In this document: positions 1 through 64,000 of the stretch, one piece after another
How positions within the stretch are numbered: the first letter of the stretch is position 1
Layout of the letters: each line of letters opens with the position of its first letter
Source: Sphyrna mokarran
Taxonomy: Eukaryota
Assembly: GCA_024679065.1 (NCBI GenBank)
Contig: JAGIQG010000040.1
Coordinates: forward strand, 9,920,001 to 9,984,000
Length of the DNA: 64,000 nucleotides
Reading direction: 5' to 3'
Made by a program: the position numbers and the translations under genes
The notes under the pieces: generated by a model
Database searches by the model: none
Told to the model about the DNA's origin: nothing
What the model saw: the letters and a program-made list of their open reading frames with translations, nothing else

Positions 1-2747
1 AAAGTAATGTTGAATAAACAAATCTTTATGAACAAATGAGAACAGGCGAATGCATTCATTAAAGTGTGAATGAACGGTCATTGGTGAATTTCTGAACATT
101 TACAACATGTTCCTTATCTGCTGGGAAAATTTAAGTTTTGATGTTTATTTATTAATGCCACAAGTAGGCTTACATTAAGACTGCAATTAAGTTACTTTGA
201 AAATCCCTGAGTCGCTCCATTGTGGCGTCAGTTCTGACGCTGAGGGAGAATTAAGCCTGGCCAGTACACCTTACCTTCATGCGTTTTTGGATTGTGGGAG
301 GAAACTGGAGCGCCCAAAAGAAATACAGGCATACTCGGAAAATGTACAGACTGCGCATAGACACTGACCAAGTCAGAAACCGAACTGTGGCCCTGGGGCT
401 ATGAGGCAACAGAGCTAACCACTCTGCCACCTGGCACCCACCATTCCACAAGAGATGTATGATTCAAATTCATGACATTCTTATGCAAAGTAAGTCAATG
501 GAAAAAAAAACTGCTCCAGCTAAAGACATATCTCAGTCATAGCGTCACGGGAAAGGTTTTTGCTGTAGTCACACTTGAAATATTTCATTTTTGCAGACCG
601 GGTATGTGCAGTATAGTGATTATGTTGGAAGATTTACTCCAGCCAGCAATTTTCCATGTTCCATATGTGTCCATATCTTTAACATACTTTGGGCAATCTT
701 GCTAAGCCATTCAATATCGTCAGCATGGCAAGGACTATAGGATTTTGGTGATGACTGGTTTTACACCAAAGTTCCTAATATCTATTCATGAGCTCAAAAC
801 GGTAACAAACAACACAAATGTAGCTTAATGGACAGAACTTGTGGCACAACTAACCTTTTAAAAATTGTCCTCCTCGATCATCAGGAAAAGATGATATAGA
901 GAAAAGAATCCTATCTGATGTGTGTTGATTGTGAATCCATCATGTTCTGTAAATGGAAGGATGCAAGTGAGCATTTAGAAATTAACTTTATAAACATGAT
1001 ACATTTCACAAAACACATGCGGACCAAAATGCAAAATTTTTGTTCTTCCAGGACCACTGTATTCCAGAAATGATTTAAAATGAGTCTAAATGTAGATGCA
1101 CATTTTAAATTAAAAGATGAATAGAGAGTATGTGCCCTTGATTCGTGGCAGCATTTGACCGTTCGTAGCATCAAAGAGCCCGAGTTGAAATGCAGCACCA
1201 GTTCCAACTCCTCAGGTTACTGACACAATCTGCGTCCATATGAAGCAAGACTTAGAAAACATTCAGTCTTGGGATAATGGGTGGCAGATAACATTAATAC
1301 CATACAACTGACAGGCAATGACCCTCTTCAATAAGGGGGGATTCCAACCAACTCTACTTGATTCTCAGTTGGGCCGAAGGGCCTGTTTCCCATGCTGTTT
1401 TGTTCTTTGTTCTTTGAACAGTTAATGTGAATCAGAGGGAAAACAGGCTGGAACACAAAGGAAGATGATTTTGGTTGTTAATGGTCAATCATCTCAGGTA
1501 CAGGGCTTTGCAGGAATTCTTCAAGTCACTGGCATAGCCTCAAGCTTCAGCCATCATTAAAGTTCTATGTGTGGGATTTTCACTGATGATTGAACAACGT
1601 TCAGCACCGGTTCCAACTCCTCAGGTACTGACACAGTCTGCGTCCATATGAAGCAAGACTAAGAAAACATTCAGTCTTGGGATAATGAGTGGCAGGTAAC
1701 ATTAATATCATACAACTGACAGGCAATGACCCTCTTCAATAAGGGGGATTCCAACCAACTCCACTTGATTCTTAGTAACATTACTAGCGCAGTATCACTA
1801 ACTATCAATATCCTGGGCATTATAATTCGTGAAATTCTGAACTGGAACAGGCATTCAAATCCTGTGGCTAAAAGAGCAGGTCAGATGCCAGGAGTTCTGC
1901 GGCAAACAGCTCATTTCCTGAATTCTCAAACCCTGTCCGTCTTCTATAAAGCAAAATTGACAAATATAAACAAAAAACAAAGGACAGTATAGCAGATGAA
2001 CAGGCTCTTCTTCCCATCAAGACTGTTCCAACACAAATGTTTGAATATTCTCTGCTTGCCTAATATGTGCCACTCAAAAAGCTCAATGACATTCTGGAAA
2101 AAAAAATAGCTGTCTCGAAGAACAACCCACCCACCAGTTTCCGAAAGCTTGCCACCACATTCTCAAAAAAAATCGTTTGTCAACAAAAGTTGACTTTATC
2201 AGTGACTTCAAAACCCCATTACATAATATTAAATATGTTATATATCTGCTTATATTCAACTTGTCTCTGACTCTGCCTGCGTTTCACTAGGCCCTGTCTG
2301 GGTCACGTTCCAGGAGGACCCATCTAAGTTTTTTTCCCCCTGCAGTTGGCTTAGCATCATCTGTTCATGTAGGATGTTGGGTCCTGTTAATATTCTAAAT
2401 TCCTAAATTATGGCTGCATGTCTCTATTAATCTGACAAAAAGGCCGTGTCTTAATTATTACTGCCTCAGACCATTTAGCACTGTATACTAATTTGGAAAA
2501 GTTGCCTTCATTCATTACACATGGTTCTGTTATAGTTATTTTGCTAATAGTTAGTTAGATTTTAATAATCTAGGTCCTCTTTAAGTTAACGCTGCACCTT
2601 TGCATTATTTGATTATTTAAGACTATGTCACGCCTCAGTTTTATTGTACTTTGCAATACCTCCTAATTGCTGCATTGTCTGAATCTCAGTGTGTGTCAAG
2701 TCTCGGTCCTGTATCAACACTTACCACAAATAAAGTGGGTTCTGTCT
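1..2747 (+). repeat. Segmental duplication copy A (paralogue of ~59018-64000)
   Basis: Colinear, diverged similarity across unique DNA, a SINE and an old RT remnant. Confidence 0.9.
150..440 (-). mobile_element. HE1/V-SINE-like element
   Basis: tRNA-derived head and V-domain core (gtttcctcccaca) on the minus strand. Confidence 0.75.
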
Positions 2748-2831
2748 CAGTTTATATCAGTCAAGGTAGTCAATCAGCAATTATCACTAAACTCTGAACT
2801 CTGTCTCAGTTTAAACCTGTCTCAGGACTAG

Positions 2832-3300
2832 AACAAAGAACAAAGAGCAACACAGCACGGGAAACAGGCCCTTCGGCCCAACGAGCCCACGCCACCGTCC
2901 GAACGTCCTAATGACATATTCTTGTCTTTAGGCTATGCCTATTGTTGAAGATTCCCATATAGGGACCAATATAGGGACAATTTGTTACCCAATCAGCCTC
3001 ACAGCACATTTTTGGGATGTGGGAGGAAACCGGAGCACCCGGAGGAAACCCACGCAACCACGGGGAGAACGCGCAAACTCCCGCAGACACAGGCCCAAAT
3101 CCATGTGTCTGCACAACAACAGCGATAGTCTCTGAGCTGTCATGTTGCCCATCAGATGGTCCAGTTTAAGCATACACTGACGACGTGAAGCACTAGGCAA
3201 CTCCTGAAGCAACCTCCAAGAGCAGCTCTCGCACGACATGCCGCATGCATGCTCCTTGTTGGTCAACAAGGTGGACCGAATTGCCTGCGGAAACAAATAA
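2832..3300 (-). mobile_element. 3' part of a CR1/V-SINE composite element
   Basis: (GTTCTTT)n-type tail, V-core and spacer homologous to 30330-30770. Confidence 0.75.
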
Positions 3301-4249: not shown

Positions 4250-4600
4250 ATCTAATATAAACGTGAAGAGGATCAATTGCAGAAGCAAGACTGCATATAG
4301 TTCGATACAATCAGAGATAGATCTAAATTAATATGAACGGAGGCAACGTCTAGCTTAATATAAACAGAAACATAGTGATACATAATATAAACAGGGATAT
4401 TATCTAATTTAGTATAAACAGACAAACATCCAATTTAATATGAGTAGAGACAGATAATATAAATTTCTATGTGCAATACATAAAGTGTAAGGGTCCAATG
4501 AAAAATAAACAAAGGCATGACTTCATAATATAAGCTGGACAGAGTAAACTTACTGTGATATAAAGAGACTGGTTCAATCGCTATGAAATTTGTAGAGATA
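4250..4600. repeat. Degenerate ~26-27-bp minisatellite (taatataaacagaga-like)
   Basis: Recurring taatataaacag at ~27-bp spacing; similar tracts at ~2400-2830, 3400-3850, 7400-8350 and 13150-13800. Confidence 0.55.
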
Positions 4601-5350: not shown

Positions 5351-6109
5351 AGACCATACCAGTGTGGAGACAGAACACAGAATCAGATAGGAGAAAGACC
5401 GAGAAAGAGATGGCACACAGGAAATTCCCACGAATAGATTTGCATTTGTTATTTTATTTCGGGATCAGAGGGAATATTTTCTAATTCTGAACATAAATAT
5501 CATCATGATGCTTTTTTCCCTCACAAAACCGATGAATAAATAATGTTGAAAAACAATCATTACTGGAATCCGTTGATTAATTTGCATGGTTGTCTCTATT
5601 TCTGTGCTGTGTTGGTGGGGAAATATTTGTTGTGTTTTTTTGTCAGTCAACAATCTAATTTGGAATTACTATTTTTGTATTTATTTACATAAATACCTTA
5701 CTGCTTACAACGAAATGTTCATGACAGCAAAACCAGATAAATCGTCACTTATTGATCAGTTTCAACTCAAAATAGTGATTTATTTTAAGAATATTAACAG
5801 TTGGTTCAAACTGAATAGAAACTTTTTGAACATACATAACAGCAGTTGCATTTAATTAAAGGAAGATAATACATTCCATTTCAGAATCAGTTCTGAAAGT
5901 TCTGATGTCACAATTAATGAAGTATCTGTGAACAGGCTGGTATTCCACTAAATGTTAATTTGATTGAGGATTTAATCTGTTTAAATAGACAAATTAAGTA
6001 AAAAAAAAATCTGATGTCTGAAGTATTCCTGTCACAAATAGTAATCACATTCACACGAGGGAAGAATAAAAAAAAATCCAGTGTGATTATCACTAAGAGA
6101 TACAATTAG

Positions 6110-6300
6110 CTTTGCTGCCTCCCAGGGGACAGGGAAGAGGGTTTGATTCTAACCTTGGATGACTGTAGGTGGTTTTCACATTCTATCCATATCCACTTGG
6201 ATTTCCTCCGAGTGCTCCAGTTTCCTTCCACAGTCCCAAGATGTGCAGATTAAGTTGATTGGCTATGATAAGTTGCCCTTTAGCGTCTAATGATGCGCAA
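6110..6300 (+). mobile_element. HE1/V-SINE-like remnant
   Basis: gctgcctc...ggtttgattc head and tttcctccgagtgctccagtttccttccaca core. Confidence 0.65.
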
Positions 6301-9156
6301 CATAGAATCATAGAATCCCAACAGTGCAGAAGGAGACCACTCGGTTCGTCAAGACTGTACCAGCTAATCCAGCAGAGCATCTAGATTAGTATAAAGAAAG
6401 AGCACATCTAGTTAATATGACAAAGTCTTCTTTAATATAAACTGACAAAGGGATTAGTTATTCAACAACAGCAGATAGAAGGTCACAGGCAAGTTGAATA
6501 TAGAGACAGGGCCTCGTACCCATCAAACATTCCAAGGGCAGGTGCAGGATGTGGTCGGGTACTGAATGTTAAGCTCCCTCCACGTTGGTGTAGCACTGGG
6601 GAGACACGAAGTGAATCTCCATGTCCATTCTCATATTCAAACATTCCCAGAAAATGTAGACTGTTTAGAAACAGTACAATGGCCATTACATCATTCATCA
6701 TTTCTTTGTTCCTCATTATAATTTCCCTGCATTCTGGGTCTAAGACACTTACATTTGTCTTAACCAATTCTTGTCTCTTCAGATATTGATACAAGCTTTT
6801 ATAATTAATGTCTATGTTCCCTGGGATTTTACTCTCAATCTCTATTTCCCCCGTCGATTATTTGGACTTTCTTTTGTTGAATTCTAAAACGTTCCGAAAC
6901 GTCAAGCTTGTGGCTTCTTCTGATAATTTTATGTGTCTTTTAACTAAGAAGTTACATTTCCTCTTCTGAAAGACATCCAAGAAAAAGTTGAGCTTTGACC
7001 AGAAATGATTTTCGCAGAAACATGATTACAGTGTGGATGTAACTCTATTTGTGATGAATGAATAAGTTTTAAACGGTTAAACTTTAAATACACATGATGT
7101 TTGTTTCAGCTTAATCAATTAACTGAGCTGAAATTCCCCAGTTGCCGGGGTAGCATTGGAATTTCTGTCCCCAGAGCATTACTTCAGGCTTCTCGAATAC
7201 TAGCTTAATAATGATATTGCTATATTACCCCTTAGACTGAAATATCATCACATTTATTAATGGAGTAACTGAACATTCAATACTGGGTCACAAGGCGCAT
7301 TGCGAGGTAACTTCTGGGAATTGAAGACATTACCATTTGACTCAGAAATTACGTTGTTTCCATTCTTAACTGATTACAGTTTGTGTTTTGGCATGGTGAC
7401 ATTTAACTCAGTGTGCCTAAAGTCTGAGATTTATGTCCAATATTACACTATACATTTATAGCACAAATGTATTACGAATGGATTTATGCTATATTCGGTA
7501 ATTTATTTCGTTATGTACACTAGGCCATCTCTCTATTTACGCTACGTTATTTCATCTCAATTAGTACTCGAATAGATCTCGGATCTGATAATATTACATC
7601 TGATCCCATCTCTGTTCACATGACAGAATTTGTCTCTTTACATTCCATCCGGGACCGGCTCTGTTAATTCAAATTACGACCATGTAAATGTCGCCTGGTA
7701 TTTAATTTTCGAAAGCAAGTCTCCTCCTAGCCTTGAATCTTATTCTGACACAATGAGAATAATTCATGGGAATCCATGTAAAAGTTCCATCAATTCACAA
7801 AATAACAACGGTGTTATCGAGTTTGACGTTAATTATGCATGAGCTGCACTATCAGAACAAATGAACACTTGGTTTGGTTCGCGTAGAACTGAGCAGTTTA
7901 TGGGAAATTTAGTACAGACGTTCAAAGTTCTGAATGAGAATGTTTTACTCATTAGGAAGAACCTCTTACCAACTGGCAAGAGGGCCAGTGCACAGAAGAC
8001 ATTGCTATGCCTCTTCATGTCCTGAATGTGACTCATTTGAATCATTATTGCAATAGATCTTACATTTGTTTATATTACTTAATTTGTGTTTTACCAGATC
8101 CAGTCTCTAATTATATGACAGAAGGCCTCGTCTCTTTTTACACTATATTCGGTCATTTCGCTCCTAATGCTACACTCGGCCACCGCGCTATTTACATTAG
8201 GTTCTCTCAATTAATGCGAGAGCAAACCACGGATTTGTTCATATTTCATCAGATCTCATCTCCTTTTTATATTACACAGGATTTGTCCCTTTGCATTGCG
8301 TCAGAATCTGTCTCTGTTAATCTAATATAAGACATATGCTGCCTGCCAAGATATTATCAATCCCAATATAATATGGGTGAGTCTGTCTGACAGTAATCAT
8401 TCTTGATTGGAAGAGTAGGTTTATTTTTTATTAGTTTCGATAAGTAGCTACGAGAATCACCTCATTGCTCTCTTATTGTGTGAGTATTATTTAGCTTGAA
8501 CGATATAACTATTTCTCAGTGATTTGTTGGTGTTATTGGACAGGTAATATATGAGTAATCTTGCAGTGCTTGTTGCAATGCCTTCAAGCAACCTCCGTTG
8601 TGATACGTCTTATTAGTTGAATATTCTGCTGCACTGTGTCAATTTGACACAGACTTTAGTGATAAAGATTGTTTCACCCGTCTTATTTGTAGTATTCAAC
8701 TGATACACTCATAGCGTGAGACAGAATTTTGTGCTCACAATATCGCCAGACGGATTCCCATTGATTAAATGTCTATCCACTCATTAATTCCTCATTGGTT
8801 TCAGAGAGAAATAAAACGAAGTGACTACAGAACAAGTGTTGGCAGTTAGGTTATGCTTGAATAGAATGTAAAAATATATTTTCTCTGCAATTTATATTGT
8901 TATCTTGTAAATTATTTTTCAGTTTGGGATGTCTTCATCTGTCTAGGCCCTAACCTTTCTTATTCCGTGCTTAAATCCCCTTATCTCTCTTACGTCTCTA
9001 AGTCAATTCATAAAACTGTTCCTTTATTTGCCATCCTGTCAGTAATCTGTTCAAATATCTCGTTGCTCAAAAACAAGATGGTGTGAATGCATGGGATCTG
9101 AGCAGAAAATGTCAGAAACACTCAGCCAATCATTCATCGTAAATGGAATGGTATTC

Positions 9157-9302
9157 ATCTCTCTCTCTCTCTCTCTGCCTCCCTCCCTCCACTCTCCGCT
9201 ATGGCCCTGCCTCTCTCTCTCTCTCCCTCTCTGTCGCTCTGTCTCCCTTTCTCCGCAGTGTTCCTGCCTCTATCTCTTTCTCTTTCTCTCCCTCTTTCTC
9301 TC
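9157..9302 (+). repeat. (CT)n-rich low-complexity tract
   Basis: Visible directly. Confidence 0.8.
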
Positions 9303-9919
9303 GATACACATTTGTTGCAGTCATTTACAGTAATGCATTAGGCCATGCCTCTTTATAAACTGAAGATGACTGATTTGAATCACTATTGCAGCAGATCTTT
9401 TAGGGTTTGCATTACATAATATGTCGTTTCATTTATTATTGAATGATGACATGCCGTGATAAATGCTACAAATCATCATTTATGAGTTTTTGTTCAGCCA
9501 AGAGGCAACTTCTCTTACATCAGGCTCCATCTCAGATATCATTGTGCTAGGCTCTATGCCACGCACTACTGAGCGCATCCGTGCCTTACTTTGTATTATA
9601 TTGGGCCCGATTAATATAGCCAACACTGTCTCAGCAATTGGTTTTCTATAAAGTGCCTCTGACAAATGGAAATGAAGGAGGAGCGAGCGAGATGAGAAGA
9701 TGGATATTAGTTTAAAGATGTAATATATCTGTGTCGATGAATAGGTTTGAAAAATGCATTTCGTGTTGTTAATCACTACTGGGTGTTGCATCGAATATCT
9801 AATTGCTCTCATATTGTGTGACATATTTTCTTGAAAGCCTCGAATGAAACTTGAAACATCCTCTTGTCCAAAAGAGATTGAGGAACATAATAAATGTATG
9901 CAAAGTTGCACTGCAAATG

Positions 9920-10110
9920 GACACTAAAAGACAATTCAGCGTGGTCATTCCAATCAACCTGTACATCTTTGGAATGTAGGGGGAAAGCGGTAAACCTGGA
10001 GGAAGCCCACGCACAAACGGGGTGATTTTACAAACGCCACATAGTTACACAAGGCCGAAATGGAACCTGTGTCTGTAACAGTGTGAGGTTCCAGTGCTAA
10101 TCGCTGTGTA
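9920..10110 (-). mobile_element. V-SINE-like remnant
   Basis: Reverse complement of the SINE head and V-core. Confidence 0.6.
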
Positions 10111-10289
10111 AATAATTCCTACTAACTTTAAAACCAATATGAGTAACGTATTCAGTATTTACTTGCACATTCTGTGTCGCAGTCAATACCTAAATTTAAT
10201 GAATTGTCTTGAGCGCCCTTGAATGTGATGTACAGCTGGCCATTCCGCTGCCAGTGCAATGCATCTTTCAAATGACACAGTGAACGTTT

Positions 10290-11091
10290 AATGGAGTTTA
10301 ATGTGGAAAAGTGTGAGGTACTGCACTATGGCAGAAATAATAAATATGTAGAGTATAGGGCTAATGGTAGGATTCTTAGTAGTGTTGATGAACAGAGGGA
10401 TCTTGGTGTATATTTGCATAGATCCCTGAAAGTAGGCAGTCAAGTCGAGAAGGTTGTTAAGAAGGCATATGGAGTCTTAGCTTTTATTGGTAGGGGGATT
10501 GAATTTCGGAGCCGCAACGTCATGTTGCAACTGTACAAAACTCTAGTGCGGCCGCACTTGGAGTATTGTGTGCAGTTCTGGTCCCCACATTATAAGAAAG
10601 ATGTGGAGGCATTGGAGAGGGTACAGAGGAGGTTTACCAGGATGTTGCCTGGTATGGAGGGCAGGTCTTATGAAGAGAGGCTGAGGGATTTGAGGTTGTT
10701 TTCGATAGAAAGGAGGCGGCTAAGAGGGGACCTAATCGAAACATATAAGATGATTAGAGGTTTAGATAGGGTGGACAGTGATAGCCTTTTTCCTAGGATG
10801 GAGAAAGCTAGCACGAGGGGACACAGCTTTAAATTAAGGGGTGATAGTTATAGGACGGATATCAGAGGTAGGTTCTTTACCCAAAGGGTGGTTCGGGAGT
10901 GGAATGCCCTGCCTGCAGCAGTTGTAGATGCGCCAAGTTTGGTGGCGTTTAAGAGGTTAGTTGATAAGTATATGGAAGAGAAGGGAATGGTTTAGTTTGG
11001 AGGGGCATTGCTTTTTATATTGGTCGGCGCAACATCGAAGGCCGAAGGGCCTGTTCTGTGCTGTAATGTTCTATGTTCTATGTTCTATGTT
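10290..11091 (+). mobile_element. Young 5'-truncated CR1 LINE (ORF2 C-terminus, 3'UTR, (GTTCTAT)n tail)
   Basis: Open 234-aa frame with [19 protein letters not shown] and FFTQRVV..WN.LP motifs. Confidence 0.95.
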
Positions 11092-14000
11092 TCTCTTACG
11101 CTTCAGACTGTACGTTAATCAGATAACTTTTATTCTCTCTCTCAGTCTCCATTAACTTAGTTACTCGGGTATCCAGGAGGCGGATCTGGCTACTCATTGA
11201 AAAAAATGTTTATGTATTTTTTGGTTAAGACATCTTGTGACTAAAAAGATGAAGCACAAAAGACTCATCAATGGAAAATTCAGTGTCGGAAACAAACCAA
11301 TTCATTCGCTTAAACCCCTCTCTTCAATTTCTCTCACACAACACCTAACACACTTAAACTTTCTATTTCAAAACCCCTCGGCGGGAAAGAAATGTTGCTT
11401 TAATTTTTCCTCTTTTCTCTCACTGAGAATCTTTAGTCCATTTCCCCTTCAATTAATCTACTTAAACCCTAAATCTGATCATTTTTGAATCATTAAAATG
11501 GGAATGGAGGTTAATGTAATGCTGACACCGGCAGCAATCTGTGTGAATGTTTTTCATGCTTTCATAGTGAGTTCACCCTCTCAGGCAGGAAGACTGTTCA
11601 CGGTGATAACACCAAACTGGGCCTGGTTGTTTCATTCTCAGGTAATACAACTTCCTGTTTCATGCTGCCGGTTCCAAACCGCACATCTCACTTCTGAGCT
11701 GAAAATAAACCCAGAGACCACAATCTGGTGAGAACATCTGTCAGTGCGGCCTATATCTGTCCACAGAGTCAGGGCAGAGTCACACAGATCACATTGCGGT
11801 GACATTTACAAATGAGACTGTTGCAATCTGTTCAGAGTTTCCATTCCCGGACATTATCGGAATGGTCAGTGGATTATTCACTGAGCTTCCCCGGGCTCCC
11901 TGGAAAGGAATGATAGCTGTCATCTTTTCTTGTTTGATCATCTTCTCTCCATCTATTATTTATTTTTGTGCTCCTCAGCTTTTATCTGTCAGCACCCTGT
12001 TCTTCTTTCTCCCCAAATCTCCGTTGTCTCTCTGTTAATCTTTTGAACACTTTAATTCGAGTTCAAAATAATGAAGTTGTGAGTGTGGTAATTAAAGAGA
12101 GAATATTTCTACGCGAAGGACGGCTGGTGGACAATGGGCAAAGATTTATTTTATTGAGCAGGGCGACAGAAATTTCATTATTTAGTTTCACACAACAGTT
12201 GTTATGAACTAGGATAAAGAGCTTGAAAGGCGGATGGAATTTGATTTCACGGTAACTTTGGAAAATAAATTAGATATATCCTTCAGGGAGTTAGAATTTG
12301 AAGGATTTTCGAGAATACGTCCATTTTAATGGTCCTTTATATCATTGTCCTTGCATCGTTTCTGTGTCTCCCCTGACCTTCATTGAGACTGAACAAAATA
12401 CAATATTTTACAGCTGTCTTTTTGTGCTAATCTTATTGTTTGACAGCACTTGCGCGAGTGTGTGTGTATGCGTGTCTGTGTGTGTGCGCACGCGCGCGCA
12501 GGAGGGCTTGCTGTGAGGGCGGGGTGGGGGGTGGGAAGGTGGACTATTCAGAAATTTAATTATTCAATTCTATTTACAAGCCATGGTTTTGAACAAATTA
12601 GCACTGGATTGAACTTGTTTCGGAAAAGTCCAATAATCCTTAACGTTTATTGCACTGTCCTTTTTTCCCTCCGATTATATTTTCATACTTAGTCTTTTCA
12701 GCCCTCACGTCTCCTAATTCTGCCTGTAAATGTGGACCTTTTTGTAAGAATGAGAAGGAATAGATGATTTTCTGTTCCTCTGATTACATTCACCATTATT
12801 ACTTCAGATTACAGAAAATTATGGATTGCGCCACGAATGTCCCACCTTGCGAATATCAGCTCTTAGTCAGGTGGAGTCGGTCACTCCTGCGATTGGTCAA
12901 CACAACTAATACGATCTGGTGTAATATAAACGAGGGACGGGTTTTGTGCAGGAATAGAAAGACATTGTAAAATGCGCAAATTATTGATACAACACCTGTA
13001 CTAATATAAATGCAGACTATGTCCAATTCAGTGTTCACTGAGAGCGTTTATAGCGTAGAACTAGCCAGCGTAATGTTTTCTCACATAGACAGAGACATGA
13101 AGTACGCAGCTGTAACAAAGTCAAGTTTTATGCCAATGTTCGCAGAAACAATGTGCACCATAATTTAAACTGAACATGAGCTCGAGTAATGCAATGTGCC
13201 ATGTGTCGAGTAATGTGTCATATCGACACTATCAGAATAAAGTTTATGATCAAATATGATATGTACAGAGATGTGACCCAGTGGAATAAAAAGTGAGGCA
13301 ATGAAGAGCGAAGCAATAATTTAGACAGGATAATGTATATAATGAACAATGGTATGGTTTAGCGAAGTACAAAGGAGAGATCATCTAAAGCAATAGAACT
13401 GCCACCGGGTCTTGTGCAATTTTGTCTGATTCTGGGTATTGTCTGATATAAACTGAGACACAGCGGTGCAATAATTTCAAACTAAGTCTTTAGATTGATA
13501 TGAGCTTTGACAGGGATGGAACAATAAACAAGTCATGAAATACGACAATAGAGACAGGATATTATAAACAGGGAGGCGGAATGGTGCAGCAGTGATTCAG
13601 ATACTGTCGATGTTTCTTTATACGTTGCAAGTTTTAGCAATGTAATATCAAATGAGATTTGGTGCAGTTTAGAAACAGCTGGGATTGTGTTGAGTACAGA
13701 ATCAACTGAGAATTATTATCATACATTCAGAAATATGAGTTTGCATCATAATAATGAATCTAGTTCAAGATGGTCAAAGATTGAATTTATTGCAGCAATA
13801 ACTGAGACGATCTGTTTCTCGTTGTGCCAAAGAGCAAGGTTTCACTGCCATCTCCTGGAAATTCATTGTTATTGCAGGTGTTGTGAAATGCTGATTTCAG
13901 TTGCTGTTTCTTTTTCTTTCATGGGCTGCATACACAACTGGCAAGGCCAGCATAATTTGGCAATAACACTCTGTATTCGGTACTGTTAATTCATTGGATT

Positions 14001-15959
14001 TCTCGATCATCACAGAATGCATGTGAGTGCCAAGCACGTGTGGGCCTGGAGTCAGCTCTGGGCCAAACTGGGGAATGATGAATGATTTCCTTTCCTGCTG
14101 GGCATTAGAGAATCTGTTACATTGCTTGTATTGGCCACAATTACAGAAACGGGGTTTAAATTCAAAATTGCAATTGCATTTTAAAACCTACGTTCTGTTG
14201 CAGTCAGATTTGAACGTATATCTTGACAAAACTGCCACCCCTCAGAATTACCCTCCCAGTGATATTACCAATTTGTCATTCTCTCCCTTTCCCACACAGA
14301 TAGAGTATTTACAGCAGAGAAGAGGGTCATTTTAAAGCATCGTGCATGTGGTGATCATCTAAGGAAGCAATTCATGTAATAACTCGCTATACCCCACAGT
14401 CCAGAACGTTGTTCATTTTCAGACAGTAATCCTTTGAAAACCATCAACTGGCGCTGCCTGCATCATACTCTCAAACAGCACATTCCAGTTCTGAATCAGT
14501 CACTGTCTGAATATGTTTTTCGTGATGTCTCTATGCCTCTTTCACCAATTAACTTCGACCTGCGCCCTCTGTTACAAAATTCATCTGTCATTTGTCAGTT
14601 CCTCTCTATCTACTCTGTCAAGACCCCTTGGGATTTTGAAGGTCTTAATGAGATCACATCAGTAACTTCCTGTCAAGGAAATCAGTCCAAGTCTCTCCAA
14701 CACATTTTCTTAACGAATTTTCTGACTTCTGGAACTATTCTCGTGTTTTCCCCCTGCATTCTGCCTATTGGCTTTATATTCCTCCTTAAGTTGGTTCCTA
14801 GGACTGGACGTCATTTATGTTGTTGGTACCAATATGAACTCCGACCTCTGGCTGATCACCCTCCCGCTTCAGAATGTCCTTTAACTGTTCAGAAATGTCT
14901 TTCACACTGGCACCAGGAGGTAACATACCATCCTGGAGTCTCGACTGCGGCCATAAATACGCCGGTCTGTGCCCCTAACTAGCGATTCCCTGATTACTAC
15001 TGCTCACTTGTTCTTTGTCAGGTCATGCTCCACAGCAGAAGCAGGCATGGTGCCACAAGCCTGGCTGCTGCAGGTATCTTCCCCTGTCTTGTTTGGGGCA
15101 CGTTACAGAACTTTTGTCCCAGCTGAAACATGTGTGAGAGGTGATGTTTGAGTAGAGATTTGTGTATCTTGGAAGGTGCAACCCAAGATGGTGCAACGTT
15201 GGAAGACATAACCCAGATAAGCGTATCCAGGAAAATGAAAGTCAGGAAAGTTAAATCCTTGAATGGTGCAATTCAGGTGTAACCCTAAAGTTGAAAGCCC
15301 TGTAAGATGAAGCCTTCAGATTGTTGGAAGATAACTTACGATGGAATCCACTGTAACATTTAATGGGCTTGATTTTATTTACAATGGACTCGATTGTAAT
15401 TTACAATGGACTCGAAAATTGCAGTCCCGACGGCAGTGCCTTGGAGGTGGAACCCTCAGAAAAGGAAAATATGGAGAGCAAAGCCCTGGACAGTCGTAGA
15501 TAACTTGCAATTAAACTTATTGTAACGAAGTTGTTTGCTATTGGTTAACGGACCATTGTTAGCTGTCGGTATTGTGTCCATATTATAGCTTGCTAATTTA
15601 TAGTCATTATGAGTTGTTTGCAACATTGGAAGGCTCATTGTGGGTACTTGCAAGGCACACTGGCTGTTTGTTTCTGTGCTATTGTTTGTGCTATTGTATT
15701 AAAAATAAAACGTTTCTTATTGATACTGTGTAAAATTTGGTGTTATCTCTATAATTTATTATTGTGGATCGGTATTGTAATTTGGTTTGTAATCTGAAAG
15801 TGTGATATATTTTGTATTTGTAAACTCTGTGATAAATAAAAATATTGACTCTTACTGATGGCTTTTGAAAACTCTTTTTATAGTGGATTAGAAGGCGAGC
15901 ATTTACACACACACACGTAGCTAACACCATCTCTTCCCTAATACAATGCAGGGTGGAGC

Positions 15960-16675
15960 TATACAATGAATGCAGAACCATCGTGAGTATAGACACACAG
16001 AGGGATCTGGGTGTGGGAATCCACAGATCCTTAAAGGTGGCATCACAGTGGAAAAGGTAGTAAAGAAGACATATGTCATGCTTGCCGTAATTGGACGGGG
16101 CATAGAGCATAAAAGTTGGCATATGATTTTGTAGTTATATAGAAAGTTGGTTAGGCCACATTTGGAATATTGCGTCCAGTTCTGGTCGCAACATTGCCAG
16201 AAGGACGTGGAGACTTTGGAGACTGTGCAAAAAAAAAGGTTTACCAAGATGTTGCCTGGTATGGAGGGTCTTCGCTATGACTGAGTTTGAATAAACGAGA
16301 TTGTTCTCCCTGGAAAGGCAGAAGTTAAGGGGCGACCCAATAAAATTACGAAGGACGTGGATAGGGTGAATAGTTTGAAGCTTTTTTCCCAGATCAGAAA
16401 TGACAAACACAAGGGGCACAAATTCAAGGTAAGGGAAGCGAGGTTGAATACAAGTATGCAGGGAACGTATTTTACACAGAGGATAGTGGGGGCCTGGAAT
16501 GCACTACAAGCAAGGTGGTTGAGGCAGACACGCTAGGATCATTTAAGACTTATCTAGATGGCCACACGAACAGACTGGGAATAAAGGGATAAAAACAGAT
16601 AGTCTAATTAGGAATACATGATCAATGCAAGCTTGGAGGGTCTAAGGGCCTGTTCCCGTGCTGTACTGTTCTTTA
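15960..16675 (+). mobile_element. Older CR1 LINE 3' fragment
   Basis: Degenerate [12 protein letters not shown] region and CR1 3' tail. Confidence 0.85.
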
Positions 16676-17482
16676 TTTTCAACTTCTATCTTGGACTGAC
16701 AATATTGACTTGTTTTTTTTTACAGGCTACTAGAAGATCATGTTAAAAATCAAACCAACATCAGATTGGAACCTGACGGATTCACTCAATTCATCAGAAC
16801 CTGAATGTCATTGTGTCATGAAGAGAATTGAAATTAGGAATGACAATTTTAAATAGATATGCTCTTTAACCAGGACCCGTGTAGGTCAGTGATTACAGGA
16901 ATACAAACAGATTCATATTTATCATGGGTTGAATATGGGAGGCTCCAGGGAATAAAGGAATGAAAGTTTCAGAAACAGGAGCTCTGACAGAATCGTATTG
17001 AGCGACGTTATTGGGATATGTTAGGAACAGGAAGAGGGTTAATTTAAACCACATTATTTTTTCCTATCATCAGCTCTCCGTGAACAGAAAGATGTTTTTG
17101 ACTTCACTACTTCTGTCTAAGTGGGGGCATATGTCCCAACCACTTGGGATAGGGTAAACTCAAAAAAATTGTTCATTTACACACAATAAAAATGTAGCAA
17201 ATGGTCTCAGCATTGAACCTTTGAATTCATAGACAAATGTTGGACAGAGAAGGGAAAGATTTACAGAGCAAAGATCACAGTTGACAATTGTGTTACACAT
17301 GGTTCCACAGTCCAGAATCACAACGTCTCTTCTGGGATAATGGAGTGTGTGTTTCCTGCCCTGGCCAGATTACTGAGAATGTCAGTATTTGTGTGGTTGC
17401 TGCATTTTGTACAGTGTGGACGTGGTGGAATGTGTTTGGAGACAAGATGTCCCAGTTCCCCAATCTTGGATTTTCAGTATGC

Positions 17483-18940
17483 AAAGAACAAAGAACAAAG
17501 AAAATTATGGGATTGGAACAGGCTTTTCGGTCTTCCAAGCCTGAACCGACCTTGCTGCCCAATTAACTAAAACTCCCTACCCTTCCTGGGACAATCTCCC
17601 TCCATTCCTATCGTCTTCAGGTACTTGTGAGGACGCCCCCTAAAATTCACTACCGTATCTGCTTCCATTACTTCCCACAGCCATGATTTCCAGGCACCCA
17701 CTACTCTCTGCGTAAAAAATCTGACTCGTATCTCTTCTTTAAATCTTGCCCATCACACTTTAAACCGACACACTCCTAGACTTTTCCACCCTGGGAAAAA
17801 ATAAAGGCTTTTCACTATCCTCTTGTCCATGCCTCTCATAATCTTATAGACTTATATCAGGTCTCCCCTCAACCTTTGTGGCTTCAGTGAGAACAAACCA
17901 AGATTTTCCAACCTTTCCTCATAGCTGATACCCTCCATAGCAGACAACATCCTGGTAAATCTTTTTTTCTGTACCCTCGTCAAAGCCTCCACACCCTTCT
18001 GGTAGTGTGGCAGTGAGAATTGAACATTATATTCCAAGTACGGTCTAATTAAGTTTCTATAACGCTGCAACATGACTTGTCATTTGCTTTTAAACTCAAG
18101 ACCCCGGCCGATGAAAGCAAGCGTGCTTATGCCTCTTGACTAACTTGCATTGTCACTTTCAGTGACCTGTGTACCTGTACACCTAGATCCCTTTGCTTAT
18201 CAATACTCTTAAGGGTTCTGCCATTTACTGTATATTTCCTATTTTTATTAGATCTTCGATAATGCATTACCTCACATTTGTCCGGATTAAACTCCATCTG
18301 CCATCTCTCTGCCCAAGTCTCCAATTGATCTATATATCTGTTCTATCCTTTGATATCCTCAACGGTATCCGCTAATCCATCAACCTGTGTCGTCGACAAA
18401 TTTCCTAATCAATCCAGTTACATTTGCCTCCGAAACATTATGCATAACAAACAGCAAAGGTTCAACACTGATTCCTGAAAAACACTGTTTGTTACAACCC
18501 TCCATTCAGAAATGCATCCTTCCACTGCTACCCTCTGTCCTCTTTGAACCAGCCAGTTTTGTATCTGTCTTGTCACTTCACCTCTAATCCAAAGTGACAT
18601 CACCTTCTGCACCAGTCTGTCATGAGGGACCTTTCCAAAGGCCTGATTGAAGTCCATGTAGACAACATGTACTGCCCTACTGTCATCAAACATTTTTGTC
18701 ACTTCCTCGAAAAACTCGATTAGGTCGTGAGAATCAACTTTCCCTTCACAAAACCATGTTATCTCTCACTAATACGTCCACTTATTTCCAAGTGGGAATA
18801 AATCCTGTCTTCGAAGAATCCTCTCCAGTAATTTCCCCACCACTTATGTAAGGCTTACCGGTCTGTAATTAGCTGGATTATTCTTGCTACCCTTCTTAAA
18901 TAAAGGAACAACATTGGCTATTCTCCAATCCTCTAGGAAC
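17483..18940 (-). mobile_element. CR1 LINE fragment (RT)
   Basis: ORF pieces VYMDF..AFGKVPH, WQMEFNPDKCEV, RPYLEY; frameshifted. Confidence 0.9.
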
Positions 18941-19429
18941 TCCCCATCTTACTTGAGGATACCATCCACCAGGTACACGGCACATATTCTCACAACTCAG
19001 CCAATATGGTATGCTGCAGGAAAGGATGTCTCAAGGCATGCTACATTGAGAGGCCATGCAGATGGTACGACGTCTGGCTATTCACCTTCTCCTTTCAGAA
19101 TGTTTTCTGCTCCAACATTTATTGCCTGTCCCTAGTTGCCCTTTGACGGCATGGAGAGTCACCTATATTGATGTAACTCTGCTGTTTCATGCAGGCCAGT
19201 CCAGGTAAGGACGGCACATGTCATTCCTAAAGACATTAGTGGACCAGACAGATTTTGCAACAATGGTTTCGAGGTCATCAGTCGATTCTTAATGCAGATT
19301 TAAAAAATACATTGCACCATTTGTCGTAGTGGGATTTGAACTAGGAAGCAGAGCACATTAGCCAGGTTTCTGGATTAATAGTCGAGTGACAATGTTATTA
19401 GTTCATCACCTACACTGAAGCAAGCTTCT

Positions 19430-19755
19430 CGGCTGACGTTCATTCAACATTACTGCTGGATTCGTCACCAAGACTTGCTTGTAGTCACACTCTCCTATCC
19501 CTGACCTATGAGCAAATTTGATGTAGTTATTCCAAGGGCTGTGACTGCCTCCTGAAACACAGCACATCGCTAATGCACCTCCTCCTTGATATGCCACAAT
19601 GTTAAAAGCTCAGACTCCAGCTCATCAAATCTGAATTGGACTTCCTCGAGGAACCAACACTTCCTACAAATGTGTTCGCAAGCAAACACAAATGGGTCTG
19701 CAAGCTCCCATGCCATGCAACTACAACACGTTACCTGGTCCTGCATCTTCATTTT
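19430..19755 (-). mobile_element. CR1 ORF1 remnant (Cys-rich zinc-finger/leucine-zipper-like)
   Basis: CCSCMAWE...HICRKCW..LEE...ELESEL pattern typical of CR1 ORF1. Confidence 0.65.
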
Positions 19756-20050
19756 ATCGATTCAGTTCTAGTTTGTTTTAAACTTGTCGCTAATATTCTA
19801 CTTGGAGCTATTTTCTCGATAAACTTCAGAGATAGTATCCCACCAGCAAAAATCTAAATCCGCTTTGAATCTGTTAGAATGGGAAAGTGTGTTTTTTTTT
19901 TTATTCGTTCGTGGGAAATGGACCTCACTGGCTAGCCATCATTTATTACCAATTCCTAGCTGCCCTTGAAGGGCCGTTGAGAATTAAACACATCACCGTG
20001 GTTCTGGAGCCACATGTAGGACAGACTAGGCAAGGAAGTAAGATTTCCTT

Positions 20051-20348
20051 CATAGAACATAGAACATTACAGCGCAGAACAGGCCCTTCGGCCCTCGATG
20101 TTGCGCCGACCAGTTGAGAAAAAGCAATGACCCTCTAACCTAAACCATTCCCTTTTCATCCATAAATCTATCCACTGACCACTTAAACGCCCCCAAACTT
20201 GGCGCATCTACAACTGCTGCAGGCAGGGCATTCCATACCCTTACCACCCTCTGGGTAAAGAACCTACCTCTGACATCCGTCCTATAACTACCACCCCTTA
20301 ATTTAAAGCTATGTTCCCTCGTGCTAGCTTTCTCCATCCGAGGAAAAA
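20051..20348 (-). mobile_element. Young CR1 3' end
   Basis: PRMEKASTR...WNALP and tail, inserted in an older repeat. Confidence 0.9.
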
Positions 20349-20899
20349 TAATATTCCCCAAATGACATTAGTGAACAAGAAAAGTTTTTTTTTTCTTCTG
20401 ACAATCGACAATGGTTTTGTGGTCATCAGTTGATTTTTAATTCCAGATTTTTTTTATTAAATTCAAATTCCACCCGCTGCAGTGACAGGGTTCAAACCAG
20501 GGTCCCCAGAACATTAAAAACATCGGGAACGCTTCCTGAAGCTACGACATCAGCAGGAGCTGCTCAGAAAACCCTCTCAGTGTTCCTTCCAAGGACTTAC
20601 TCGCCAATCAGCTGCTTCCGTTAGCGCCACGTCACTTTCTGAAATATAATGTCTGGTCGACACCTATCCACACTGGAGCGGGCAGCAAGGGGCCGGGTAG
20701 TAAGGGAGTCAAGACACAGCAACACTTCTCCACCCATTTCCCCAGACTCCCACACTTACCCCAACTCTCGGCGTTTCACCCTTTGCAGATTGTACTGTGT
20801 GGAGCTCAGTGAATGGGCAGATTTCACAGGCTTCAGTTCGGTAGGTTATATTTGGGCATGTCCAATTCATGAACGAGTTTGAAGTCATTGCACCACTCC

Positions 20900-22295
20900 C
20901 CCTTAAAACTTGAGTAACCGCCGAGGGCTGACGACCTTGGAAGCCTTTTCTGGAGTTTCAATGCTGGGTCCGGTTCCTCCTGCTCAGCCTCGGAAGTGAA
21001 TGGAGTTCAGCAGAGCTCGCCACTTCCACGATAAGCATTGTGGCCAGAATTCCCTTTATTCGGTGACAATGTGGTCAAGAGGCTAAACCTGCTGTGTGCA
21101 TTTCAGATTCTGTAGTTCTCGCTGGCAGAGATGGATAGCATGAGCTGGAGTGCCTGGAATTCTTTCCTGGGAATTGATTTTTCCAGCACGATTTGGTACT
21201 TCATGGCTTGTAAATGACAGCAGTATTCCCATAAGATGGTATCTCCCAAATGGACTTGATAGGAAACTGGCCCAGTCCTGGACTTAACCAGTGCCTCATA
21301 ACCACGCCGATCAATTGCCATGATTATTTACTAATAACCCATCAACTGCCTTTAAGTGGCTTTCCCGGTTGGTGGGATAAGCACTGAGTGTCTTGATGCC
21401 TTGCTAACCTCCTGCCCTCAGGAAAATCAGACTCAACCTTGGGTAGAGTCATCTTCCCATGCGGAACTCTGCTGGGGCTATTCTGGTCATTAAATGGATG
21501 GTGAAGGGCTGGGGTGGAGGGGGAACGGGGAGGGCGTCATCCTATAATTGAAGATGATTGTGAATGGTTTTGTGTCCAAAGAGGCTGTGGGCTGGTTTTC
21601 AGATGTGCAGAGTGGTGACTGGTGATAGCGCTGCCATTATTACTGATATTGTCAACATTGACGCATGGACAAAGATCTATATCCATACTTGCCACAGACA
21701 TGGCAACTTGAAAGATTTTCAGTTTGCCACTCTTGGGTTGCCATGGTAAAGTTAATCATGGGATGGTAAAATTGAGCCAGAATGACATTCCTGAGCCTCT
21801 TAGGATTGTGCCATCTTCCACAGTCAGCTGCTGTCTTCCACTCCAATATGATGCAATTCAGGCTGTAACGGCCTTTTGGGTTCTCCCAGCAGCCCAAGCT
21901 GCTTCAATTCTATGCTAGCATCTCCACATCTTGGCGATTATCGACCCCACAAACTGCCAGCACCAAGTGGAGAGGATTTCCAAGAAGACCACACGTACCG
22001 TCACAGACACACGCTGGCATCTCCAGTTCAATTCATTCAGGAATGGGTAATTTTGCCTCCACAGCCGTATATTATTGTAGCCACCTGGAGAATTTGAAAA
22101 ATATTCTTGATTATCGTCTCTTGCACAGCCTATTAATCATCGCCAACTCAAGGCATCTGCCTCAGCAACTCGGCTCCTGGAGGGTGTTCCAATCAGTAAT
22201 ATGGCCAACAGTAATAAAGACCACAGCTGAATATGGGCCGATGTTATGGGTTACACTGCCATGCAGGTACTTCTGGATCTTCTTTGACCAAACTA
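20900..22295 (-). mobile_element. Degenerate Ty3/Gypsy pol/integrase remnant
   Basis: KSRTGPVSYQV is integrase C-terminal-like; other pol-like fragments; many stops. Confidence 0.6.
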
Positions 22296-22309
22296 TCACC
22301 GTAGACGAA

Positions 22310-22600
22310 GTGTCACAGTGGTTAGCGCTGCTGCCCTATTACACCAGAGACCTGGGTTCAATTCCTGGCTTAGGTCACTGTCTGTATGTAGCCTGCACAT
22401 TCTCACCATTTCTGCGTGGTTTCCTCTGGTTTCCCCGGTTTCTTCCCACAGTCTGAAAGACGTGCTGGTTACGTGCATTGGCCAAGTTAAAGTCTCCCTC
22501 AGAGTACGTAAAAAGTCTCCAATGTGTGATGATTAGCCGATTTTCACAGTAACTTCATTGCAGTGTGAAGTAAGCTTACATTTGACACTTTATAAATGAT
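22310..22600 (+). mobile_element. HE1/V-SINE-like element
   Basis: cagtggttagcgctgctgcc...gggttcaattcc A/B boxes, V-core and 3' tail. Confidence 0.8.
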
Positions 22601-23279
22601 AAACTTCCTCTGAATTTGAATTGTTGAATATTGCTGGGAATTCTCATTGAGCTGTTAGTGCAAGTGGACGTGAATAAGTTCATAATCAGAAACAGGAATC
22701 ATGCTGACAGTTTTGAGTTGAAATTCTCAATCCAAGGGATTGGAGACTTATCCACCTGTGACAAACAGTTTACCACTTGTTTAATTTTTAAATGCTGGTC
22801 GGCCAGCAGTTATTGTCTATCCCTCGTTGCCCATGGTCAAAGGATAATTCAGTGTCATCCAGATTGCTGTGACCATGGAGTCATATTTAGGTCTGACTAC
22901 ATAAGGACAACAGATTTCCGTCCCTTAGAGAACCAGCTGTGATTATTTTTTTCGGAAAATCGGCAAAGGTTTTATGGAAACCAGCTGAATCTGAATTCCA
23001 GATGTATTTATTCAAATTCCACCATCTCCTGTGGCATGATTGGGACCCGAGTGCCAGAACATTAGCTGAGTTTCTGTATTAATAGTCCAATGATAAAATC
23101 ACCAGTCCATCAAATCCACACCCTGAGTGTACGCATTCTGAGTTCTGGTAACCTAGTCACACTATATTATACACGTCTGCTGGGTTTACAGATTGGACAG
23201 AATTAACTGCATCAATCAGGGAGCTCATATTCCAATAGCTCCACCTGATGCATATGATTAAATTCATTAAATATGTATT

Positions 23280-23813
23280 TCTGTTTCTCCGTCTTTCTGT
23301 GCACCTCTCTCTCTTTCCCTCTCTCTCTCTCTTCTCTCTGTCTCTCTCTGTGCATGTTGTTCCATGTCTCTTACTGTCTCCTACTGTCACTTTCACTCTC
23401 CTTCAACCTCCTCTCTCTACCCTCTCCTTCTGCCTCTCCTGCCTCTCAATCACATTCTATTTCTCACGTTCCATCACCATCTCCGTCTCCATCACCGTAG
23501 CTGTCCCTTTCCTTCTTTCTCTCTATCTCGCTATTTTTTTTGTTCTCGCCATGTCCATTGTATTCGTTCAGTCTCACTCTTTCCCTTTCACTGATGCTCT
23601 TGTTCCCTCTCTGTATCTCTGTTTCTCTCTGCCCCTGACTATTACCCAGTGCCTACTTTTCTGTCTCTCTTTCCCTTTTAACTTTCTCGCTTTTATATCA
23701 AATCTTTCCATCTGTCCTCCTATGACTCCTTTCTTTCATTCCCTATGTACCTCCCTCGTCACCTCCACCAATCTCTATCGCTGTCTCTCTCGCTCTGTGA
23801 GAGTGTCTCTCTG

Positions 23814-23844
<31 letters not shown>

Positions 23845-24010
23845 GGTCTCTCTGTTTCTTTCCCTGTATCTGTTAGAAACTCTTTCAAAATTGGCCAATC
23901 TCCATATATTTGTGCCCTCTCCGCTCTCTATCAATCATTGTTTTTCCAGCACTTTCATCGTTGCTCACACTGTCTCCTTTCTATCTATCATTCTTTCTGT
24001 TTCTGTGAGG
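23280..24010 (+). repeat. CT-rich low-complexity region
   Basis: Visible directly; accounts for the spurious 282-aa ORF. Confidence 0.8.
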
Positions 24011-55093: not shown

Positions 55094-55139
55094 CTTTCTG
55101 GTGGTTTGGGGGAAATGGTTGTGTCAGGAACTCAGTGAA

Positions 55140-62054: not shown

Positions 62055-62394
62055 CAGCGAACAGCTCACATCCCGAATTCCCAAAAATCTACCTATCATC
62101 CACAAGGCGAAAGTGAGGAATAGGAACAAAGAACAGCACAACACGAGAACAGGCCCTTCCTCCCACCAAATCTGTTCCAACACAGATGATTGAATAGTCT
62201 CTACTTACCTGACTTGAGGCACTCAAAACCTTAATGCCATTCTGAAAAAATAGCTGTCTCGAAGAATACCCCATCCACCAGCTTCCCAAAGCTTGCCACT
62301 ACATTCTCAAAGGAAAATGTGGTTTGGCAACAAAAGTTGACTTTATCAGTGATGTCAAAATCCCATGAAGTAATGATAAACATATTATATCATT

Positions 62395-63498
62395 TACAGA
62401 AAATGCAGATGTGTGGAATAGAGGGTGATTTAGCTAATTGGATTAGAAATTGGCTGGCAGATAGAAGACAGAGGGTGGTGGTTGATGGGAGATATTCATC
62501 GTGGAGTTCGGTGACGAGTGGTGTGCCTCAGGGGTCTGTTTTGGGGCCCCTGCTGTTTGTAATTTTTATAAATGATCTGGATGAGGGTATTGAGGGATGG
62601 ATCAGTAAATTTGCAGATGATACTAAAGTTGGTGGAGTGGTAGATAGTGAAGAGGGGTGTTTTAGTTTACAGAGTGACTTGGACAAGTTGCAGAGCTGGG
62701 CCGAGAGGTGGCAAATGGAGTTTAATGTGGAAAAGTGTGAGGTAATGCACTTTGGCAGGAACAATAAATGTGTAGAGTATAGGGCTAATGGTAGGGCTCT
62801 TAATAGTGTTGAGGAACAGAAGGATCTTGGTGTATGTGTCAATAGATCCCTGAAAGTAGGCAGTCAAGTGGATAAAGTTGTTAAGAAGGCATATGGAGTC
62901 TTAGCTTTTATTGGTAGGGGGATTGAATTTAGGAGCCGCAGCATCATGTTGCAACTGTACAAAACTCTAGTGCGGCCGCACTTGGAGTATTGTGTGCAGT
63001 TCTGGTCGCCACATTATAAGAAAGATGTGGAGGCATTGGAGAGGGTACAGAGGAGGTTTACCAGGATGTTGCCTGGTATGGAGGGCAGGTCCTATGAAGA
63101 GAGGTTGAAGGATTTGAGGTTGTTTTCGTTAGAAAGGAGGCGGCTAAGAGGGGATCTTATTGAAGCATATAAGATGATTAGAGGTTTAGATAGGGTGGAC
63201 AGTGATAGCCTTTTTCCTAGGATGGAGAAAGCTAGCACGAGGGGACACAGCTTTAAATTAAGGGGTATGAGTTATAGGACGGATATCAGAGGTAGGTTCT
63301 TTACTCAAAGAGTGATTAGGGAGTGGAATGCCCTGCCTGCAGCTGTTGTAGATGCGCCAAGTTTGGTGGCGTTTAAGAGGTTAGTTGATAAGTATATGGA
63401 TGAGAAGGGAATGGTTTAGTTAGGAGGGGCATTGCTTTTTATTTTGGTCGGCACAACATCGAAGGCCGAAGGGCCTGTTCTGTGCTGTATTGTTCTAT
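62395..63498 (+). mobile_element. Young 5'-truncated CR1 LINE with an uninterrupted ORF2 fragment
   Basis: Open frame with PQGSVLGP and FADD motifs and a 3' tail; empty site at ~2243 in copy A. Confidence 0.95.
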
Positions 63499-64000
63499 AT
63501 CTCTGCTTATATTCACCTTGCCTCTGACTGTCCATGTTACACTAGGCTCTGCCCACATCACATTCCAGGAAATCCTATCTAAATATTTTTCCTACATTGG
63601 GCTCAATATCAGCTGTTCATGTACACGGCGCAGGCCCTGATAATATTCTAAGTTCTAAGTTATGTAGTTAGCCATGTCTCTGCTAACCTGACAAGAGGTC
63701 ATGTCCTAATTCTTACTGCCTCAGAACATTTTCAACTCTATACTAAACCGGAAATAATGCCTTCATGCATTACACATGGTTCTGTCACAGTTATTTTGCT
63801 AACAGCTCATTAGATTTTAATGATCTAGGTCCGTTTTAAGTTAATGCGGCACCAATTCATGGACTTGATTATCTAAGACGATGTTGTGTCTCAGTTTTAA
63901 AGTACTTTACAATACCTCCTAATTGCGGTGTTGTCTGAATCTCTGTGTATCAGTCTAGGTCTTGTATCAACAATTACTACTAATAAAGTGGGCTCTGTCT

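Follow-up and report, generated by a model that had tools for sequence, protein, structure and literature searches.

Elasmobranch IgM genes are arranged as miniclusters with the order VH-D1-D2-JH-Cmu, of which there are 15-200 per genome (PMC2435157), and the origin and layout of these 15-200 clusters are described as poorly known (PMC12227049, PMC2435157). Many clusters of immunoglobulin (Ig) heavy-chain genes are found on one chromosome in the antigen-receptor complex (AgRC), where IgM, IgW, IgNAR, and TCR-alpha-delta are linked (PMC12227049). In the nurse shark, somatic inter-cluster switching allows the V of one cluster to be expressed with the C of another (reviewed in PMC4279169). Here we analyze a stretch of 64,000 nucleotides from Sphyrna mokarran, C994:9,920,001-9,984,000 (contig JAGIQG010000040.1), referred to as the window, which contains an IgM minicluster on the minus strand (cluster B) and a broken gene for a G-protein-coupled receptor (GPCR). 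The left neighbor of cluster B, on the same strand, is called cluster A; positions are those of the window, and negative values or values above 64,000 extend its numbering beyond its ends. With a probability of about 0.72, we read the window as spanning the interval that separates two same-strand IgM miniclusters, 59 kb from each other, which have a 28-30-kb block in common, likely through an old local duplication, with the GPCR lying outside this block as one of 55 such loci in 1.7 Mb.

The region is a fresh instance of the known shark IgM minicluster organization, with some descriptive detail that appears not to have been described before. Like the miniclusters of PMC2435157, cluster B has one V, two D, and one J within 2 kb, followed by four C exons, a secretory tail, and a transmembrane (TM) region, and it is present in multiple copies. 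V, D1, D2, and J, each with recombination signal sequences (RSSs), fall inside 1.3 kb, and the cluster has its own Cmu1-4, secretory tail, and TM exon downstream, as expected of an elasmobranch IgM minicluster. The J-to-Cmu1 intron is 6.2 kb long, compared with 6.3-6.8 kb in the nurse shark (PMC2435157). Spacing differs, with nurse shark miniloci at least 120 kb apart (PMC2435157), whereas V-to-V distances of 37-120 kb are common here. Orientation, duplication units, and intervening genes are not mentioned in the parts of PMC2435157 consulted. Great white shark IgM genes, like those of C994, occur in both orientations (PMC12227049 Table S1). The AgRC as given in the consulted parts of PMC12227049 lists only antigen-receptor genes and psmb5, while the region described here also has GPCRs; no GPCR terms were found in the consulted text or supplements of that paper, nor were IgM duplication blocks or V/C mosaicism seen there. 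A literature search at the level of listings and abstract openings found no published work that places GPR139-named receptors in shark Ig loci or describes duplication units of IgM, and likewise nothing in print on the inversion bias and V/C mosaicism reported below. The consulted part of one preprint (10.1101/2022.10.17.512540) has no mention of immunoglobulin or receptor.

The surrounding stretch of C994 was surveyed over a contiguous 1.714 Mb. Among 150 scored candidates genome-wide, 35 Cmu4 matches reached E<=1e-25, and C994 carries about 25 Cmu4 matches together with many more distant V-type exons. Cluster comparisons and trees cover 22 V-bearing clusters, as against the 35 Cmu4 matches that exist; further DNA outside this tree set contributed no Ig exon.

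A preliminary description of the window, made from its letters alone, had noted that 1-2747 is colinear with 59,018-64,000. Self-alignment recovers this as four colinear pieces of 72-81% identity, far beyond chance: 1-1195 against 59,018-60,211 (71.7%, E 2e-180), 1419-1908 against 60,209-60,695 (80.7%), 1902-2243 against 62,057-62,390 (76.3%), and 2239-2747 against 63,496-64,000 (78.7%). The two ends of the window match as the 5' flanks of two paralogous IgM clusters. The leader of cluster B had been placed ~3.9 kb left of 59,018 and has its ATG at 55,093, a distance of 3,925 bp, and the second VH leader predicted ~4 kb left of position 1 was found at -3,992..-3,953 on the same strand. The latter belongs to cluster A, which is complete, with Cmu1-4 and TM reaching down to -22,433, open frames, and normal RSSs. 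The V-to-V distance between A and B is 59,050 bp. The chain common to the two clusters pairs 38,456-66,666 with -23,990..6,026, a block of 28-30 kb with a mean identity of 78.8% and a Kimura two-parameter distance (K2P) of 0.19, made up of the ~14-kb gene with flanks of 2.7 kb on the 3' side and 11.5 kb on the 5' side. The other IgM clusters examined share a block whose boundaries are similar. The expected neighboring Ig cluster is therefore present at the predicted offset, with homology well beyond a few kb, and the repeated unit is indeed larger than the Ig gene, but at 28-30 kb against ~14 kb it does not attain the 59-kb span that had been proposed.

Beyond this block, the proposal that the whole window is one ~59-kb tandem unit, carrying IgM plus a GPCR and multiplied head-to-tail, does not hold up in the alignments. 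While 96% of the non-repeat bases of 1-6,100 align at +59 kb, the interval 6,101-38,400 has no homology at 59-kb offsets: 0% of its 26,836 non-repeat bases align at offsets between -50 and -70 kb, and 2.3% do so between +50 and +70 kb. Only 1.7% of 66.7-97.5 kb aligns at -59 kb, and no Ig exon was found at +59 kb. The next full V on the right is 118 kb away and inverted, that on the left is 450 kb away, and there is no further copy in phase; a 59-kb periodicity is ruled out by the offset alignment. The GPCR lies outside the A/B block, and the nearest GPCRs differ from it in strand and subfamily, the one nearest the homologous position beside A being 60% identical and the one upstream of B 78%, with both lying on the opposite strand. 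There are 55 GPCR exon-2 loci in the 1.714 Mb (28 +, 27 -; 43 open), interspersed with 16 full V exons; at least one of these loci falls in 91% of the 59-kb windows across this stretch. The GPCR between A and B is one of the 55 scattered loci, and strand, subfamily, and local GPCR density rule it out as a cassette partner.

Head-to-tail multiplication is the exception among the clusters compared. Only 4 of 20 adjacent V-bearing pairs are on the same strand, one of them spanning 450 kb, versus 16 of 20 that are inverted (11 of 15 on C994 and 5 of 5 on another contig, C1082); this count excludes two half-clusters cut by gaps and some orphan TM exons. Young duplications on C994, defined as at least 12 kb aligned at 88% identity or more, number 19. 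Nine of them are direct, with more than 107 kb between the copies in every case; the 4 pairs lying closest together are inverted. An Ig part and a GPCR occur together in 9 of these 19, so that the suggestion that IgM and GPCR move together is right insofar as they are co-duplicated nearby; the copies are inverted or dispersed and of varying content, and do not form a fixed cassette. One of these nine is a 69-kb direct duplicate of 99.0% identity (C994:9,330,529-9,399,435 and 10,168,838-10,238,533), with a whole IgM cluster and two GPCRs, which ends at an assembly gap and represents a genuine duplication of IgM and GPCR or else an allelic version. Three GPCRs accompany an IgM TM exon in a 35.4-kb inverted duplicate of 99.5% identity (C994:9,821,193-9,856,592 and 10,304,421-10,339,825); one of its copies terminates close to an assembly gap and has a TM with no upstream cluster, and may be a misplaced haplotype. 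On C1082:1-300,000, six IgM clusters in strict +/- alternation are 96.5-98.8% identical over blocks of 8-32 kb, with two further clusters beyond 300 kb, and constitute a young palindromic IgM array. No GPCR was found in these 300 kb holding six IgM clusters.

We next consider how A and B are related to each other and to the remaining clusters. In two V-region trees, A and B form one clade with a support of 100, and over 49.0-55.1 kb the nearest of 21 clusters to B is A, at K2P 0.168, the next being at 0.235. In the secretory/TM partition, the partner of A is instead the cluster at 10.35 Mb (93-100%) and the partner of B the cluster at 9.47 Mb (88-94%), and a grouping of A with B, fixed before this tree was built, is rejected by the approximately unbiased (AU) test (p=0.0056). 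The two partition trees kept 20 and 21 of the 22 clusters and the far-upstream distance table 10, since clusters with less than 40% coverage of a partition were omitted, and far-upstream distances were computed with repeats masked because young long interspersed nuclear elements (LINEs) had distorted the unmasked values. Because A and B are sisters in the V-D-D-J half but not in the secretory/TM end, they are apparent V-side/C-side mosaics. Exchange between IgM clusters may have been described before, by Lee et al. 2008 (J Immunol 180:7461), in which case the mosaicism would not be new. The joining of V and C halves of different clusters resembles nurse shark switching, but that process is somatic and thought to be driven by AID (PMC4279169), whereas the mosaicism here belongs to the assembled genome, is old, and would have arisen by non-allelic recombination or conversion.

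Several observations weigh against an old local duplication of A and B. Clear sisterhood is limited to about 6 kb, and the partition trees that show it were built on BLAST alignments projected onto cluster B. For the far-upstream flank, A takes 4th place among 9 in distance to B, at K2P 0.235 against 0.220-0.242, a near tie; for the block as a whole, the 9.47-Mb cluster is nearer to B (0.172) than A is (0.193). Because sisterhood spans only ~6 kb, the upstream flank is nearly tied, and the 9.47-Mb cluster is closer over the whole block, the V-side likeness could be a conversion tract between neighbors and not the trace of a tandem duplication. In this main rival, which we regard as unlikely though worth serious consideration, A and B are older paralogues juxtaposed by rearrangement and a gene-conversion tract of ~6-10 kb made their V-D-D-J regions alike. 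It accounts well for A ranking 1st against B only from V to the middle of the J-C intron, tying with four clusters upstream and dropping to 4th-5th downstream, as well as for short conversion-like tracts (93-100%) that tie the 3' ends of A and B to other clusters. It does not account as well for the upstream flank, where the two clusters remain colinear for 99% of the non-repeat bases of 55.1-64 kb, nor for a SINE-like insertion (SINE, short interspersed nuclear element) situated 4 kb upstream: besides A, just one of the 21 clusters, at a distance of 1.25 Mb, shows full coverage of it, and four show half. Adjacent same-strand sisters are also what a local duplication would be expected to leave behind.

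The region has 11 assembly gaps on C994, and several duplications of 98-99.5% identity stop at them, which is a further point against our preferred reading, as haplotype or scaffolding artifacts may account for some of the young duplications and adjacencies. Extending this to the A/B pair itself, as two haplotypes or a collapsed repeat placed side by side, is scarcely credible: A and B differ by ~21%, far above the allelic level, and have distinct insertions, there are zero gaps between them, and contigs from a DNA sequencing run (X1, possibly from the same sample as the assembly) match the B-specific J and the GPCR lesions exactly, at a depth of about 25-32. We also consider it highly improbable that a ~59-kb IgM+GPCR cassette was amplified head-to-tail and that the GPCR half was later erased from the neighboring copies by rearrangement. 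In its favor are the same-strand 59,050-bp spacing of A and B and their sister V halves, and larger blocks combining IgM and GPCR do exist, namely the 69-kb duplicate above and a ~60-kb homology of cluster A plus window 1-36 kb to the cluster at 10.09 Mb. Within the latter, 6.1-36.1 kb, the GPCR included, matches, in inverted orientation, the 5' flank of the 10.09-Mb cluster at ~75%, with 34% of non-repeat bases aligned. Both blocks, however, are inverted or dispersed (118-770 kb away), the 69-kb one ending at an assembly gap, and the 6-38-kb interval has left no trace at either 59-kb offset. The strand and subfamily of the flanking GPCRs, the absence of a third in-phase copy, and V spacings that range from 37 to 450 kb also speak against it.

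The observed part of the preferred reading, an old local duplication, comprises the A/B block with its ends, the lack of homology over 6-38 kb, the similar blocks at other clusters, and sisterhood restricted to V-D-D-J. The history behind it would be that A and B arose by local duplication long ago and later exchanged their 3' ends with other clusters. An ancestral IgM unit of ~30-35 kb would have been copied many times by segmental duplication, mostly into inverted or dispersed positions, and the A/B pair would be one of the few direct local copies, and an old one, at K2P 0.17-0.24 as compared with 2-3% divergence among the C1082 clusters. Later non-allelic recombination or gene conversion between clusters may then have replaced the secretory/TM ends of both A and B. 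GPCR and zinc-finger genes between clusters would ride along whenever a duplication is large enough, as passengers and not as a fixed part of the unit. Only relative ages are used here: at a mutation rate of 7e-10 per generation (95% confidence interval 1.4-14.1e-10; PMC10587355), K2P 0.19 converts to ~1.4e8 generations, which is not credible.

The region thus offers a direct map of a ~30-kb unit with mostly inverted copies, spacing that is often below 120 kb, probable germline exchange of the 3' end, and dozens of orphan GPCRs. This is useful descriptive genomics, and it makes V/C shuffling testable. A bolder interpretation, that IgM clusters multiply and swap V/C halves in the germline via inverted segmental duplication and that the interleaved GPCRs are lymphocyte receptors co-regulated and co-selected with them, seems to us very unlikely, and nothing in these data ties the receptors to the antibody genes in function.

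Table 1. Positions of features in and beside the window (window numbering)
Feature	Position	Strand	Remarks
Cluster A V	-4,418..-4,125	same strand as B	
5' flank of cluster A (3.9-10 kb upstream of leader)	1-6026	-	paralogous to 59,018-66,666
Old SINE-like insertion	~225-430 and ~59,235-59,470		common to both flanks
DNA between A and B blocks	6,101-38,400		continues A 5' flank; not common to A and B
GPCR exon 2 (7tm_1)	24,080-24,974	-	broken
GPCR exon 1	34,711-34,955	-	N-terminal repeat, start of TM1
In-window part of A/B block	38,456-64,000	-	cluster B with flanks
IgM TM exon TM1	41,175-41,306	-	
Cmu4 + secretory tail	44,252-44,639	-	C1-set
Cmu3	45,136-45,438	-	
Cmu2	46,351-46,659	-	C1-set
Cmu1	46,874-47,170	-	C1-set
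JH	53,352-53,393	-	23-RSS
D2	53,767-53,778	-	12/12 RSS
D1	54,164-54,185	-	12/22 RSS; degenerate 3' nonamer
VH exon	54,623-54,927	-	open frame; 23-RSS
VH leader exon	55,048-55,093	-	leader ATG at 55,093
SINE-like insertion, private to B flank	60,692-61,143		58 copies
LINE fragment, private to B flank	61,230-62,040		128 copies
Young LINE 3' fragment, private to B flank	62,395-63,498	+	RVT_1 E 1.7e-17; 129 copies

Although its frames are open, cluster B may be decaying, because its J is altered and drift is seen in the V heptamer and the 3' nonamer of D1. The V 23-RSS heptamer CACACCG is one change from CACAGCG, the commonest among the clusters of this genome, and the J reads WAQGTMVTA, with one substitution and two codons missing relative to the WGQGTMVxVxx of 18 other parsed J. 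An X1 contig covers this JH with no differences. A second run, X2, which we guess to be RNA, has V-J joined, leader-spliced contigs that differ from cluster B, and one J end in it continues as in the paralogues. Downstream of TM1, a short TM2 probably lies near 41,033-41,041 (-). Many clusters, including B but not A, have on their 5' side, at a distance of 8-14 kb, a decayed V relic accompanied by a separate copy of the upstream flank; such relics lie at 67.4-72.4 kb in window numbering and upstream of the C994 clusters at 8.83, 8.94, 9.01, 9.18, 9.48, and 10.37 Mb. The relic looks like an ancient V duplication older than the cluster expansion.

The GPCR gene of the window is broken: a premature TAG lies at 24,580-24,582, and the frame shifts twice, near 24,305 and near 24,145. 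X1 contigs cover the stop and the second frameshift without differences. Nothing in X2 matched the GPCR exon, which has no bearing on expression either way. A first look at the family gave 2,098 candidates genome-wide, of which 150 were scored, and the tree of local GPCRs omits 2 of 46 loci that were shorter than 500 bp. An intact neighbor (P0001), with 86.8% DNA identity to the window copy, served as a search query and matched 2,311 proteins at E<=1e-10. Among the matches listed, 119 of 120 are named 'probable G-protein coupled receptor 139', a name that stems from automatic NCBI/UniRef naming, and all are from sharks, mostly at 69-82% identity. The window gene is accordingly a member of this expanded GPR139-named elasmobranch family (7tm_1 class A, ~70% or more identity), and it has the two-exon 7tm_1 structure of the other elasmobranch gene models, differing in that the window copy is broken. 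Human GPR139 is the best PDB match of a full-length relative, but a weak one (E 1.2e-10, 44.6 bits), and a PDB search with exon 2 alone gave no match at 1e-5. As far as these comparisons go, the gene is not the single, highly conserved vertebrate GPR139 orthologue, given dozens of local copies and the weak match to the human protein.

The flanking DNA at the two window ends had been called unique. It does include non-repeat homology, but it is low-copy and not unique, with 3-10 copies in the 1.714 Mb, in keeping with a 5' flank common to other IgM clusters. The preliminary description was correct that a SINE is common to both ends, in that a SINE-like repeat, presumably a SINE from its motif, occupies the same site in each copy; similar copies in the 1.714 Mb number 26 for the left repeat and 14 for the right. 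The copies had been said to differ by private retro-insertions. The right copy has three private repeat insertions, one of which, the young LINE fragment at 62,395-63,498, is 97.5% identical to 38,708-39,809. The left copy has no clear retro-insertion, as its sole insertion in 1-2747 (~1196-1418) is mostly a 94% copy of the nearby 1602-1776.

Other features of the surrounding region include decayed and partial IgM genes. In the 1.714 Mb there are 19 TM1 matches and 16 Cmu4 matches, and extra or orphan IgM TM exons with part-duplicated flanks lie at C994:10,110,728-10,119,253 and 10,384,202. A divergent IgM cluster at C994:9,417,680-9,418,586 has a stop in V and its J ~400 bp behind V. It was considered as a germline-joined cluster, an interpretation that we rejected since the V-D-J sequence is decayed, showing a large deletion besides the stop in V; the cluster appears to have lost part of its D region by deletion, with no clean germline join. 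C2H2 zinc-finger-like frames occur in a 61-kb near-perfect palindrome at C994:9,506,342-9,567,824 (arms 30.7 kb, 97.7%, spacer 99 bp), which has zero Ig or GPCR exons, and several more are found at C994:9.24-9.33 Mb, a stretch with three assembly gaps and likewise without Ig or GPCR exons. Within the window, two LINE 3' fragments lie back to back at 36,562-37,434 as an inverted pair with 97% arms and a junction at ~36,951, adjoined by more LINE 3' copies at 35,780-36,364. Minisatellites are present at 32,614-32,916 (period 41/81, 7.4 copies of 41) and, inside the J-C intron, at 49,809-49,926 (period 39, 3 copies).

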